A DNA stretch of 63,420 bases, filler included, from Rhabdomonas costata (taxonomy: Eukaryota), in assembly GCA_019059605.1 (NCBI GenBank). It is 52 parts of 52 records of this genome, joined end to end, with 100 filler letters (N's around TTAATTAATTAA, not from the genome) between each part and the next. Parts side by side here need not be neighbours in the genome. Positions count along the whole stretch, not along the records: positions 20,769 to 21,890 come from JAHMHO010027503.1; 51 more parts are not named here. One strand, written 5' to 3'. The position numbers and the translations under genes were made by a program. The notes under the pieces are model-generated. The model was not told the origin of the DNA. It was given only the letters and a program-made list of their open reading frames with translations, and searched no databases. This document shows positions 20,769 to 46,530 of this stretch, in pieces (position 1 is the stretch's first letter; each line of letters begins with the position of its first letter).

Positions 20769-21144
20769 ATTCAATAATATTTTTATTTCCTTGATATTTT
20801 GTATACATTTTATGAACAGAAATAAGCCATAATATAATCGTAGAAATATATAAAAATGCTGTATATTGTTTATAATTCTTTCTAAAATCATAAATTGGTT
20901 CAATACACATACATGTAAAACACACAAATTTATTATTTTTATTTAATTTTGATCGTAAATACTTCTCTAATAAAGTTAATGAACAATTATTATCATTTAG
21001 AACCCAATGTAATATAATAAATGGAATTATTACAATATGCATTAATAAAAAAAAGTTATCATTTGTAAATGGTGTTATAACAACAAATAAAACAAATAAA
21101 AGATGTAATAATGATATTAAATGTAAAATTACTTCATTCAACAT
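20769..21144 (-). CDS. Small multi-pass membrane protein, giant-virus (NCLDV)-like; 3' truncated
   Basis: Intronless and very AT-rich. The HLLFVLFVVITPF...LHWVLNDNNCSLTLLEKYLR...CFTCMCIEPIYDF pattern resembles hypothetical proteins I associate with Mimiviridae-type genomes. Not verified by search. Confidence 0.7.
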
Positions 21145-21153
21145 TTATATATT

Positions 21154-21186
21154 TATAAATCATAATTTTAAAAATTATAATTTATA
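21154..21186 (-). terminator. Intergenic AT-rich hairpin (candidate Mimiviridae-type polyadenylation hairpin)
   Basis: TATAAAT-C-ATAATTTT-A-AAAATTAT-A-ATTTATA gives 15 pairable positions with one mismatch, 4 nt after the stop of the upstream ORF in a 46-nt intergenic gap. Confidence 0.55.
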
Positions 21187-21190
21187 TTTT

Positions 21191-21890
21191 TTAATATTTA
21201 TTGTGTATTGCTTTCATAACGTCATCAAAAGTGTATTCTTTGTAATTCATATTCTTTTTATTATTAATTATATTATCTACTATATGATCTGTACTTGTAG
21301 CACTTAATTCAACATCTCTTAAATATTTATTTGTTGACTTTTGATGTTTAAATACATCTTTATTAAAATTATTTGATATATTTATATTATTATATGGAAT
21401 TTCTTTTTTTAAAAGTGGTTTTTTATGTTTAATTACTGTCGGAGCACCGCCTTTCATAATTTCTTGATCTGAACTAGTTGCACTATTTAAAAATTTTTCT
21501 TTATTTTTTGTATGTAATGTCGAAAATATCTTTGAATCATAGGAACTTGTTGAACTTGGATCTCCGCCTTTCATTACGTCTTGATCAGAACTTGTTGAAC
21601 TTAAAATATTTTGATTAATTTTCATAAATTCACTATTAGAACTTGTTGAAGATCCACCGCCTTTCATTACTTCTTGATCAGAACTTGTTGAACTTAACAT
21701 ATTCTGATTATTTTTCATATAATCACTATTAGAACTTGTAGAACTGAATCCTCCTGTTTGATTTTTAGATGTTGACATATTTATATTGCCGCCTTTCATT
21801 ACTTCTTGATCAGAACTTGTTGAACTTAAAATATTTTGATTTATTCTCATAAATTCACTATCAGAACTTGTAGAAGATCCACCACCCCCC
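21191..21890 (-). CDS. Ser/Asn/Lys-rich repeat protein with repeated SSTSSDQEVMKGG units, NCLDV-like; 5' truncated
   Basis: Frame open from the contig end to the TAA at 21191-21193. Four MKGG and one QTGG motif, with ~90-nt DNA repeats. Confidence 0.75.
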
Positions 21891-36232: not shown

Positions 36233-39200
36233 GGGGCGGTAATTGAAAAGCCGTTTTTTTTCGCCCTTCCCTTGTCTTTCACTTTGGTCAGTATTGGTGA
36301 TAGGCACTCGTTCCTTGCTGAGCTTTGGTCACAAAAAGGGATTCGGTCTTTTTAAGGGCGGAAGCCAGCCCGCGGCGCGGCCGGAGCTGGCGGCTGAGGC
36401 CGGGACGTTGCCTGGGGGAATAATGGACAAAACTCGAAACAAAAAGGGGCTTAAAATGAACAATAATTCTGTATCTCGTTACCCCCTTCCCCCGCCGGTC
36501 AAGGTTGGTCCCGAAAAAGTTCAGGGCCGGGAGGGACATACTACCACCACAANNNNNNNNNNNNNNNNNNNNNNNNNNNNNNNNNNNNNNNNNNNNTTAA
36601 TTAATTAANNNNNNNNNNNNNNNNNNNNNNNNNNNNNNNNNNNNNNNNNNNNGTGTCGGGGGGGGGGGTGATGACGTGGCCCGTGCAACGTGAAAAGGTG
36701 AAAAGCAAAAAACTTCGGCTAAGGACACCCATACATCTGCAAAACGTATATCGGCTTATATCGGTATATCGGCATGTTCCCAAAAAAAATGATGTGAGCT
36801 TGGTAGCATAGCGACGGGAGCCATACCGACTGGGGAAACGTTGATCAGCACAAGATGAGGCGCCACGTTTGCCACTCGGTTGGTGATGTCCACCTGCAGA
36901 GATTACAATGCGATCACATCAACCACGAAAGGGCGCAAACACACAGTGATGCAGTGGACCACAATTGTCAGGGCTGTTCATCAAGCCTCTTTTGTTACAT
37001 GCGCCACTGCTTCTGAGCGGATGACTGTAATTCTCGGGAAAGGAAACTGAAAAAAAATGCCGTTTACCACGGTAAAAAGACGTGCTAAAGACTGAAGTAG
37101 TCAGTGTCCAGCGTCGAAAGCATACAGAAAAGCAGGACAAAGGCAAAACGAGAGAGAGAGCGAGAGAGAGAGTAAGTGAGAAAGAGAAAATGACAGGTAC
37201 CGGCGATATTGTTAGTACCGCTCGTGATTCCTCCCTGCGCGAAGCCCCGGAGGTGTTCTCGCGAAGCCACAGCAGCCTCTCTGGGAGCTTGGTGTGGTGG
37301 GAGCTAAAGCTGTGCCGGGAGAAGGGCCGCGATAGACGCCTGGAGGAGCTGACCTGGGTGTGCCGCTTCACGAGGCGCCCGGGGATCAGAACAAACACGA
37401 AGGAGAACGTGGAGTACCCCAGGACTCGAGCCTTCACGCCACCTGAGGCAGAACCAAATGCCGCAGCGATACGGACGGATAGCAAACTTGCGGTGCAGAA
37501 CCACACCAGTGCTCATCGTTTGGGTGAAATGGGTGACAGAAAGGCTACTACAGAGATGCCAGAGAAGAATGGAAAGGCAACATTGGCCAAATGAAAAAAA
37601 GAAAAGGTGAAAAGAGCAGTCGGCTGGACCAATTACAACTCAGCTATTGGCATGGAAAATTTGCCGATTTGCAAATAGCGCGAAGATACTCACAACACAT
37701 TCCAAAAGCACCACACGAATGCAAAAAAAAATACTCAGCGCGGTGCAAGTCCTTTTTTTTGCCGAGAAAAACAANNNNNNNNNNNNNNNNNNNNNNNNNN
37801 NNNNNNNNNNNNNNNNNNTTAATTAATTAANNNNNNNNNNNNNNNNNNNNNNNNNNNNNNNNNNNNNNNNNNNNAGGTTAACCCAACCTGAGACAAACAT
37901 CCGAAGTGGAGGTCGCCGAGACCGACCATGACAGATGTTGTTGGGTAACATGGCTGCTTGAGGCTGACTGTGATGCGTTGATGCAAGCAGTAGCATGACC
38001 AAGGTGACTCTGACGTGATGGCAACCACCACTCCGACAGAAGGGCACAGGGATGTCGTACGCTTACCTGCTGTTACACTGTCAATGCGATGCTGGGATGC
38101 TGCCACCGTTCCTGAGGGCCTTGGATCATGCGCTGTAGTTGACACTCACCATCCCTCAGCACCAGTACCACCCTACGCATGAACCCAACGATGGAGTGAG
38201 ACAGAACCCACTGAGACACACAGCCGATGGGATGATGCGTATTTTGGATGCTGGCATGACCAACCTCAGCCTCTACCCTCAACGTAAGCCAAACCCAAGG
38301 GGTGTATTCCTCTACGGCTACGCCAAGGACGGAACGAGCGTACCGATGTCAGTCGGGGAGCGAGTGAAGTGACGCGTAGGGTTAAGTGTTGATGGAGTGA
38401 CCGTAACCACCTTATGGTGGTGGAGGGAACGAGTGAGAGGGGTTGAGTGAGAGGAGGGGCTCGAGGAACCGAGAGACCCGACGATGAAGATACATTCTTA
38501 GTCGTCATGGCATCTCGGTACCTCGATGCCATTCCTCCCTCAATCCCCACTCATACTCGCGATGCTCGTATTCGTGGGGCCCCTAAGACCACCCGAAGGG
38601 TGACGCTCTCGCTACGCTCGTTACGCTACGCTCCGCTCGCTCCGCTCGTAATGTTGAACTCAAAGGGTTCTGTCGGTCGTCACTACGTTCCTCCCTCCTG
38701 TATACGTGACGGTCGCTACGCTCCCTGCTATCCTGTCGGCACCCTCGGGACCCCAAGATGCATGCCCAAGGTACACCCTACACTACCTCCCTGACCCACC
38801 TGATGCATGCCTGAACCCACACCCTCAGCCAAAACCCACATGCTCCCCGATGGCTTCTGCAGAGTCGTCCCGCAGGTGACTTGCAGTCTCTGCAGCAAAG
38901 CATAAGGGAGACACTTTGTCCCCTTGTGAAAGCTACTAAAGGATGAAAGGTGGTGAATATAGGTGCGCTACCAGTCTTTTTTATGCGTGACCAAAANNNN
39001 NNNNNNNNNNNNNNNNNNNNNNNNNNNNNNNNNNNNNNNNTTAATTAATTAANNNNNNNNNNNNNNNNNNNNNNNNNNNNNNNNNNNNNNNNNNNNGGGG
39101 GGTTTGTGTTGACACTTTTGAACACGTTATCGGCTTCCAAAACGAAGAGACGCAAGCGCTGAGAAAATCGACAGAAATTGTTGGGAAACGATAGGGCTGT

Positions 39201-44933: not shown

Positions 44934-46530
44934 TCTTCGGACTAAGTATGGTACACCCAGGTGGAAGAGTTGTAATTTTCTTTCGCACATAAAGGAACAA
45001 ACATTCTAAGGCTTGACGTTCGCAACTCTCGCTACAAAGAACGAAAGCACACGATCGGGCTCCCCACGCCACTTTAGCACGCGCATACTGGAACCACACC
45101 CCCNNNNNNNNNNNNNNNNNNNNNNNNNNNNNNNNNNNNNNNNNNNNTTAATTAATTAANNNNNNNNNNNNNNNNNNNNNNNNNNNNNNNNNNNNNNNNN
45201 NNNGGGTTTTTGGGATGGGATTGTTTTTTTCTTGCACGGGCTGCATCAGCAGACAGGGAGACGTGAGACCCTGCGGCAGAAGCCACGCCTGTTTAAGCCC
45301 GAGCGGCTAGCCCTGAGCCTGCTGTGAAAACCAGTGCAGATTGCATCCTTGAGGACTGCCTGGAGGCACAGCACACCTCTGCGCATAGCGCAGCCCGCCC
45401 GTTGTTGATGGCCTCCTTGATGCTGCTGCACACGTCGTCCAGCGAAGCCTCGGCCAGGTCTTCGCTGAGTCTTACGTTAGAAACCAGACCTGCACATAGA
45501 GAAAATCCCCCAAAACTGCTGAAGAGCCGCCCACAGCTTTGAGCCAAGCGGATGCCCACTGATCAATGCTGTATGCACCCCTGCAATTACCGCTGGGATC
45601 GTTCAACGGAACCACGGGGAGACAGTTGCCTCCCCCTGAGACTCAACCTTTTTCGGAGGTTAATGAATTTAATCATGCTTTTCTTCTCGGACTTGGTAGC
45701 AGGTGGTTAGACTTCCTTGGCACGGTGAACGCATCACCTATAACCTACCTATCACCGGACCAAATATTTGCGTCCGCTAACTTCCACATGCAGGGCGCCC
45801 GCAGAAAGGTCTGGAGCTTTCAGGGCGCCCACTGAGAGAGTCCATTGTCATGTCTTCGGAGCCATGTCCCTTCCTCGCGTTTCGCGAGAGGTGGTTTGCT
45901 GCTATTCAGTTGCTAAGTCTGGCACCTCGTCCGTTGTTCCTTCACTTCGTGGCACACCTCCTGGCGCGGCGAAATTGCCTCCTCCAGCGAAGCGGCAGTC
46001 TGCCCTTGAGCCACTTTCTTTCTTTTTCACAACGTATGCGTGCGTACGTCGGCAAAAATATCATCCGGACAGCCAGGACTTCCTCTTAGCGCGAAATGTA
46101 AAAAGTGCAGGTCATACCAACCCCCCAGTACTCCACCCCCACCTTGCCGTCGTTGGAGCTTCCTGTGAGACAACGGAGTTGATGGAGGAAAGAACGCAAG
46201 CCGCAAACGCAGAAGTGCATCTTTTCTGCGAAAACCTCCCAGCGTTAGGGGGCCAATACTGGCGCCATACATAGCCGCAAGCGCCAACAAGCCAAGACTC
46301 TAGAGGAAGGCCACACCCACCCCACNNNNNNNNNNNNNNNNNNNNNNNNNNNNNNNNNNNNNNNNNNNNTTAATTAATTAANNNNNNNNNNNNNNNNNNN
46401 NNNNNNNNNNNNNNNNNNNNNNNNNGTTGTTTTGGAAAGATCTCGAGAAAGCTGAAGTGTGCCTAATTTGCAATGAGAGCAGATGGAAGCCAACCGGGAA
46501 GAAAGTATCGTAATATCTTTTGTGATACAT

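Follow-up and report, generated by a model that had tools for sequence, protein, structure and literature searches.

An AT-rich contig almost certainly of Mimiviridae origin in a euglenid assembly, with evidence favoring integrated copies of a probably Klosneuvirinae-like virus

One contig of the Rhabdomonas costata assembly GCA_019059605.1, C27503, is almost certainly of Mimiviridae origin, and the virus from which it came was probably Klosneuvirinae-like. Taking the assembly as a whole, we lean to the reading that several copies of this undescribed virus are integrated in the nuclear genome of the euglenid and that C27503 derives from a little-damaged copy. This reading is carried by the viral nature of ORF2 on the contig, by the hallmark genes that other AT-rich contigs carry, by diverged or broken versions of genes that are normally single-copy, and by one exact insertion of a host transposon in viral-type DNA of which an uninterrupted homolog exists. 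It was built from contigs of 1–2 kb, the contigs examined ranging from 0.2 to 8 kb.

The window analyzed, a stretch of 63,420 nucleotides, consists of 52 contigs, each about 1122 bases long, with artificial N spacers between them. Positions 20769–21890 form one entire contig of 1122 bases, identical to G000:C27503 (G000 being the whole assembly), whose GC content of 22.7% (77.3% AT) was the lowest among the 52; the remaining 51 had 41–62% GC, with a mean of 51.7% and an SD of 3.7%. The original prediction had described this contig as far more AT-rich than any other, at roughly 80%, and as gene-dense with two co-oriented ORFs 46 nt apart. The AT content fell slightly below that estimate, and the layout agreed in full: 96% of the contig was coding, both ORFs lay on the minus strand with exactly 46 nt between them, and GC3 was 0.13 in ORF1 and 0.10 in ORF2 (Table 1). 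None of the 20 first-numbered contigs of the assembly, which are of the longest class, was AT-rich. Elsewhere in the window, the contig at 46426–47547 carries a tail of 29% GC (its bases 850–1122) behind DNA of 45% GC.

Table 1. Coordinates of the features of contig C27503 in the window.
Feature	Position	Strand	Remark
Whole AT-rich contig C27503, almost certainly a fragment of a Mimiviridae-type genome	20769..21890		22.7% GC, 96% coding
ORF1, 3' part, 232 aa, 5' end open; orphan repeat protein rich in Ser/Thr/Asn, with Gly-Gly motifs	21191..21889	-	
ORF1 array of 31-39-residue repeat units, each closing in K/T-Gly-Gly	21564..21881	-	
Intergenic spacer, 46 nt	21145..21190	-	
Hairpin of 15 pairs immediately after the ORF1 stop, predicted to mark a transcript end (polyadenylation) as in Mimiviridae	21154..21186	-	
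ORF2, DUF2784-like, predicted small helical membrane protein, 125 aa, 3' end open (last few residues missing)	20769..21144	-	
Probable whole-genome-amplification primer remnant, non-viral, contig end	21882..21890		G/T- and C/A-only loose ends

Most contigs began in a string of only G/T and finished in one of only C/A; these strings recurred as loose ends in the sequencing runs, indicating that the DNA had been whole-genome amplified, presumably with primers of a type that leaves such ends. The three runs came from one sample and one study, with no long-read and no RNA run among them. Reads joining C27503 to host DNA, for which the original prediction had recommended a search, did not appear; its loose ends in the three runs were primer remnants or internal repeats, and the contig itself contained no host junction, stop or indel.

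The viral assignment of the contig was obtained from ORF2. This protein, cut at its 3' end, matched Pfam DUF2784 (PF10861) with an E-value of 1.7e-6 and 28.5 bits against a cut-off of 29.7. Homologs were confirmed for 26 of 32 candidates at 48–59% identity, none exceeding 59%, and PF10861 was found on 24 of these 26. The DUF2784 family is known from bacteria too. Nevertheless, none of 17 pattern matches in GTDB genomes was confirmed as a relative, and GenBank phages contained none; the best matches to an AT-rich cellular genome that might have overturned a viral origin were absent. A search of viral contigs with the single protein confirmed 0 of 10 candidates, whereas a profile search of IMG/VR succeeded, with 83 of 207 candidates confirmed and 80 kept. 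In the tree calculated from 76 of these 80 relatives (four that were too short or cut were left out), ORF2 joined the full set of 22 AT-rich relatives (100/98), and its own branch was long (0.95). A second group, of 54 DUF2784-like genes whose viral contigs have at least 33% GC, made up a side of the tree by itself.

The predicted structure of ORF2 (pLDDT 82) comprised five helices. Its best named structural matches in BFVD were Hokovirus (47%, TM 0.89), Catovirus and Barrevirus, all of the subfamily Klosneuvirinae; matches to Moumouvirus and Megavirus were far weaker, and all the top matches belonged to Nucleocytoviricota. Chlorovirus M421L was seen as a weaker structural match as well. Against the PDB, the best Z of 6.0 was reached with generic helical bundles and gave no function. 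Of 18 GVMAG identifiers of relatives that were looked up, six were listed in supplement S1 of PMC8575486 (Aylward 2021), all six as IM_16 Mimiviridae. The Mimiviridae placement combines the single-gene ORF2 tree with the family labels of these 6 of 18 GVMAG relatives, and together with the hallmark genes described below it supports the Mimiviridae-type origin originally proposed. ORF2 had one match in the assembly, that is, a single copy. We propose that its product is a small membrane protein of several helices, encoded in the conserved core region and likely located in the virion inner membrane.

ORF1 was an orphan by every search. It contains five K/T-Gly-Gly motifs, each closing a Ser/Thr-rich unit, and a 93-base tandem repeat at 21564–21743; in the runs, a 93-base back-joint was found at 21789–21881, and the summed depth climbed across the array. 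No Pfam family scored above the cut-off. A match to Pox poly(A) polymerase (E 1.4e-4) lay below the cut-off and was rejected as low-complexity noise. Searches by tblastn in the relatives' loci examined gave no relative, 0 of 1172 candidates were confirmed among longer proteins, and the Atlas yielded no usable match; a single representative match was rejected as an unrelated protein repeated three times. In the relatives' loci, a Gly-Gly repeat protein of the same motif class adjoins the DUF2784 gene in 6 of the 22 AT-rich relatives.

Further parts of the ORF1 gene were located on C25062 and C75749 (both with more of its 5' portion), C99156, C90565 and C29582, representing at least three versions of the gene. 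The versions differed mainly at silent sites, with silent-to-replacement counts of 5:1, 7:2 and 3:1 (3:1 in the runs), and one piece was joined to a NifS fragment, indicating that the copies diverged under selection and that some were then scrambled.

African swine fever virus polyproteins are cut after Gly-Gly. An open, AT-rich gene for a Ulp1-type protease was present in the assembly, on C8921. By analogy with this asfarvirus biology, the ORF1 product may be a largely disordered precursor of the virion or the viral factory, whose processing after Gly-Gly would fall to a Ulp1-type cysteine protease encoded by the virus itself. In the available parts of the literature examined, Gly-Gly cleavage in Mimiviridae was neither supported nor refuted, and the literature on viral-factory scaffolds offered no test for ORF1.

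The original prediction regarded GG-terminated motifs and 3' hairpins as typical of AT-rich Mimiviridae, and both were recovered here. Read from 21186 to 21154, the hairpin in the spacer has a 15-pair stem and a 3-base loop (z = -2.69), and 3 of 200 shuffles folded as well; its strength is modest for DNA so AT-rich. By the hairpin rule as described for Bodo saltans virus (BsV), it may act as a transcript end, in which case the ORF1 transcript would end there. No AAAATTGA promoter was found on C27503. Because no early promoter precedes ORF2, we propose that this gene is probably carried on a late or read-through transcript.

Hallmark genes of giant viruses were found on other AT-rich contigs. 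NCLDV capsid genes (PF04451/PF16903 above the cut-off) occurred on five contigs of 23–40% GC, none of them C27503; they represent at least four paralogs at 36–47% identity, and the 3' part of the main capsid gene was single-copy. VLTF3 was present at 25% GC. An AT-rich RPB2 on C32684, one of 10 RPB2 matches, was interrupted at the GDKF site by an intein-like insert, and its reading frame changed within a stretch of (AT)n. The assembly also held Rpb5, NAD ligase, ribonucleotide reductase, metacaspase and PCIF1-like genes, and many of the core genes were open and intron-free; the viral genes examined showed no spliceosomal intron. The check by hallmark genes thus turned up the capsid and VLTF3, whereas viral PolB and A32 were not found: in this patchy, amplified assembly, the 13 PolB matches on 10 loci all had 46–55% GC, and the A32 packaging ATPase had no match.

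Composition suggests a link between the capsid contigs and C27503. The main capsid and ORF2 each had a close relative on one 404-kb IMG/VR contig and also in one GVMAG, consistent with the two genes coming from one lineage, and we infer that the AT-rich contigs all belong to one virus lineage. The motif AAAATTGA followed by 12 A/T (W12) occurred at 87 sites in the assembly compared with nine for the reversed control; scaled by the motif density of the relatives, the count would correspond to viral-type DNA of very roughly 0.7 Mb. The layout was constant: the AAAATTGA promoter, ~50 AT-rich bases, a GC-richer leader, and an ATG at about +85 to +115. Promoter-led stretches with GC of at least 0.38 made up 19 of 51 in the assembly versus 0 of 35 in the relatives' loci, all of which represent one core region. 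One of these GC-richer promoter-led genes, encoding a dual-specificity phosphatase, resembled Nucleocytoviricota clusters, indicating that such genes are not simply fresh host captures.

Broken and diverged copies were found for several of these genes. Rpb5 is normally single-copy. Here it was present on seven contigs, open in two and interrupted by frame-breaking indels or truncation in five. Its silent-to-replacement counts were, for example, 6:7, 9:12, 9:7 plus a stop, and 12:14, and the synonymous share was ~0.4–0.5 versus 0.22 expected under neutral change; judged by these counts, the substitution pattern appears to lie between selection and decay. A capsid paralog, RPB2 and a PCIF1 gene were also broken, and the divergence of the Rpb5, capsid and RPB2 copies was 3–14%. 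The PCIF1-like cap adenosine methyltransferase gene stands head-to-head with Rpb5 on C29871 and C57954 and is open in one copy and broken in the other. On contig C6302, pieces of NifS, capsid and Rpb5 are patched together, the capsid paralog bearing a deletion and an in-frame stop; at ~350–440 of this contig, a small viral-type ORF is disrupted by three hexamers of telomere type and a trinucleotide microsatellite. A pattern search for telomere repeats in AT-rich context gave 0 with a pattern that was too strict. Broken Rpb5 pieces often adjoin duplicated early-promoter genes, and C5701, which carries one broken Rpb5, ends in a high-copy repeat of ~100 bases (40 scored of 91 candidates) that also occurs in the window at 36453–36486. 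The broken copies displayed no CpG loss, with observed/expected ratios of 0.95–1.4 versus 0.44–0.91 for open copies and 0.77 for the host.

The identity of the host was examined from its own genes. Exon pieces of paraflagellar-rod genes were present on seven contigs, and one exon was 100% identical to the EukProt entry RCo002385 and 80–85% identical to named kinetoplastids and Diplonema. The host SSU rRNA (C1946, 852–2839; 59% GC) contained ~730 bases beyond the model over its first 1259 positions. These exon identities and the expanded SSU indicate that the host is a euglenid; comparison of uL3 and PFR exons with the PDB gave no name for it. The EukProt label RCo probably stands for Rhabdomonas, an osmotroph. 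Some foreign eukaryote DNA is present in the assembly; C25815 holds a second, unexpanded SSU rRNA that looks green-plant-like, and C60993 holds a Pol alpha (PolB) piece with a short intron of fungal appearance.

Joins between viral-type and host DNA were then considered on the promoter-bearing contigs. Of the 54 analyzed among 80, 23 were purely AT-rich, 27 were mosaic and four were host-like. Mosaic GC alone was rejected as evidence of a junction, since many of the 27 mosaics consisted only of a viral promoter and a GC-richer ORF; therefore, five junctions were tested by genome search. On C2099, a multi-copy host transposon of the ISXO2/Merlin type meets AT-rich DNA at the natural end of the transposon. 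In five other contigs, this end borders on four different flanks, one of which lies within a host Arf gene (the insertion in the Arf GTPase gene lies at C677, 2645–3602), and the transposon appears to carry an intron. The C2099 join falls in the middle of an AT-rich kinase-like ORF, and C57246 holds an unbroken homolog of this kinase with 85% identity, behind which AAAATTGA stands. By a rough estimate, a random chimera would hit a natural transposon end with a chance of ~2% over the five tested joins. The kinase at the junction had no Pfam hit and a related AT-rich kinase had no IMG/VR relative, so its viral nature is argued from composition and promoter context.

Only this one of the five tested junctions lay at a natural transposon end; the other four were not decisive, one being inside a retroelement (C20137), one lacking a repeat, and two involving repeats with no testable end. 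C20137 had been a candidate for a second exact transposon end and was rejected because four other copies run on alike, which makes the join internal. A pattern search for more Merlin ends returned two matches, none new in AT-rich DNA. Fold-backs end many AT-rich contigs. Since the library was amplified and fold-backs are frequent, a single join, or a slip within an (AT)n or poly-A run, may be an artefact. In the window, the host contig next to C27503 (21991–23112) gave no Pfam hit and no tblastx match to the C2099 element; by its motifs, it reads like a decayed ISXO2/Merlin-like transposase.

We propose that the virus infected the euglenid lineage and would have entered its chromosomes more than once, or been duplicated there, leaving integrated copies of different age that would then have decayed by indels, rearrangement and transposon insertion. 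The main competitor, which we regard as rather doubtful, is a free Mimiviridae virus of at least two close strains, infecting the amplified cells actively or persistently. The broken copies would then be products of gene-accordion duplication and chimeras, the transposon would have jumped into the virus, and the link to the euglenid would hold. An infecting virus would fit the many open, intron-free core genes, the ORF1 versions that differ chiefly at silent sites, the single-copy state of ORF2 and the 3' part of the main capsid, the common fold-back artefacts and the lack of CpG loss in the broken copies. BsV, too, has a duplicated periphery and degrading genes according to the available part of its description, and gene-accordion duplication could also place broken Rpb5 beside duplicated early-promoter genes. 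However, five broken Rpb5 copies, along with broken capsid and RPB2 at their level of divergence, exceed polymerase error and would be odd for viable genomes. The transposon is a nuclear host element that appears to bear an intron. Moreover, the viral contigs are not among the longest, and their unique parts have a low word depth of 4–15 (for which there is no host yardstick), both of which are unlike a lytic infection.

Quite improbable, in our judgment, is a virus from another organism or the medium, whether co-sampled, adsorbed or contaminant, with all host joins being amplification chimeras. The foreign eukaryote DNA, the amplified and chimeric library, the origin of the three runs from one sample and the lack of a host join on C27503 would all suit such a source, but the C2099 join lies at an exact transposon end and has an empty-site homolog, which is what the low chance estimate above refers to, and viral-type DNA in diverged, decayed versions at a rough 0.7 Mb is unlike one stray particle. 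A non-viral origin of C27503 from an AT-rich bacterium, organelle or eukaryote is hardly credible and already largely refuted. DUF2784 in bacteria, an ORF1 with no relative and a contig with no hallmark gene might recommend it; against this stand the lack of any confirmed relative of the ORF2 profile in GTDB genomes and phages, its top structural matches confined to Nucleocytoviricota, and the Gly-Gly repeat protein of like kind beside the relatives' gene. Among the infecting, ingested and endogenised states that the original prediction left side by side, the evidence therefore favors the endogenised one, and the ingested one is the weakest. We consider it unlikely that the most elaborate form of the integration reading holds in every part, namely an osmotrophic euglenid that does not swallow particles, layered integrated Klosneuvirinae-like copies of which a near-intact one is in use, and a two-part viral genome with a core of 20–25% GC and early-promoter genes of 43–59% GC.

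Taken by itself, C27503, with one orphan and one DUF, is ordinary. An integrated virus of the mimivirus family here would add a new host group for the family, and the euglenids are probably such a new group; with a host transposon inside viral DNA, the connection between an undescribed Mimiviridae lineage and a euglenid is firmer than mere co-occurrence could make it. If the host is the osmotroph of the database label, phagocytosis as the family's sole entry route is questioned. Should the layered-integration reading be true, this would be the first Mimiviridae–euglenid pair, with a latent cycle in Klosneuvirinae and entry without phagocytosis.

Most Klosneuvirinae-like genomes are metagenomic, with no host assigned. 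The same applies to the closest relatives here, for which no known host or integrated form appears in the literature examined: the named Hokovirus HKV1 (A0A1V0SH89), Catovirus CTV1 (A0A1V0SAZ7) and Barrevirus (A0A3G4ZPV2), and GVMAGs of the IM_16 genera g236, g240, g243 and g244. They share with the present virus a DUF2784-like ORF2 at 42–53% identity (TM up to 0.89), 19–29% GC, several capsid paralogs, the AAAATTGA promoter and a hairpin behind genes. In contrast, ORF1 lies upstream of ORF2 and co-oriented with it here, whereas the relatives' repeat protein is downstream and convergent and has a conserved C-terminal motif that ORF1 lacks.

As far as the available parts of the sources go, viruses of euglenids were unverified in a 2021 review (PMC8061765), BsV was named as the only Discoba virus (PMC12455990), and the giant viruses described from Discoba are the BsV isolate and the Asfuvirales GEVEs of Euglena (PMC8061765, PMC12455990). 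In the open literature consulted in part, including PMC12344493 and PMC13524828 (the latter with four supplements), neither a virus nor a GEVE of the Mimiviridae was reported from a euglenid; subscription papers and bioRxiv supplements may bear on this. The new virus–host link anticipated at the outset is supported, but it is not wholly new. A 2026 preprint (bioRxiv 10.64898/2026.05.21.726589) notes, in its available part, that two heterotrophic euglenids, Peranema trichophorum and Rhabdomonas costata, have transcripts of giant-virus-like DAM methyltransferases, consistent with integration; that part deals with one gene family and names neither a virus family nor a set of hallmark genes, nor does it give a copy structure or junction.

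BsV (IM_16 g237) is the only isolated euglenozoan giant virus in the available text of PMC5871332 and PMC8061765. According to the accessible part of PMC5871332, it resembles the virus here in having a euglenozoan host of ~50% GC, a viral genome of ~25% GC, hairpin termination, an early promoter (AAAAATTGA), four capsid genes and duplicated gene families. However, BsV is lytic in a phagotrophic kinetoplastid, with no integration described in that part (PMC5871332), whereas the host here is a euglenid; decayed copies of core genes also occur here, and 19 of the 51 stretches led by a promoter resemble the host in GC, unlike in BsV. The GEVEs of Euglena gracilis, as presented in the available part of PMC12455990, were mapped on chromosomes by long reads, in contrast to the 1–2 kb contigs used here. 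They have in common with the present case a euglenid host, several related copies, and erosion by transposons and duplication, but they belong to Asfuvirales, whereas the virus here is placed in Imitervirales/Mimiviridae.
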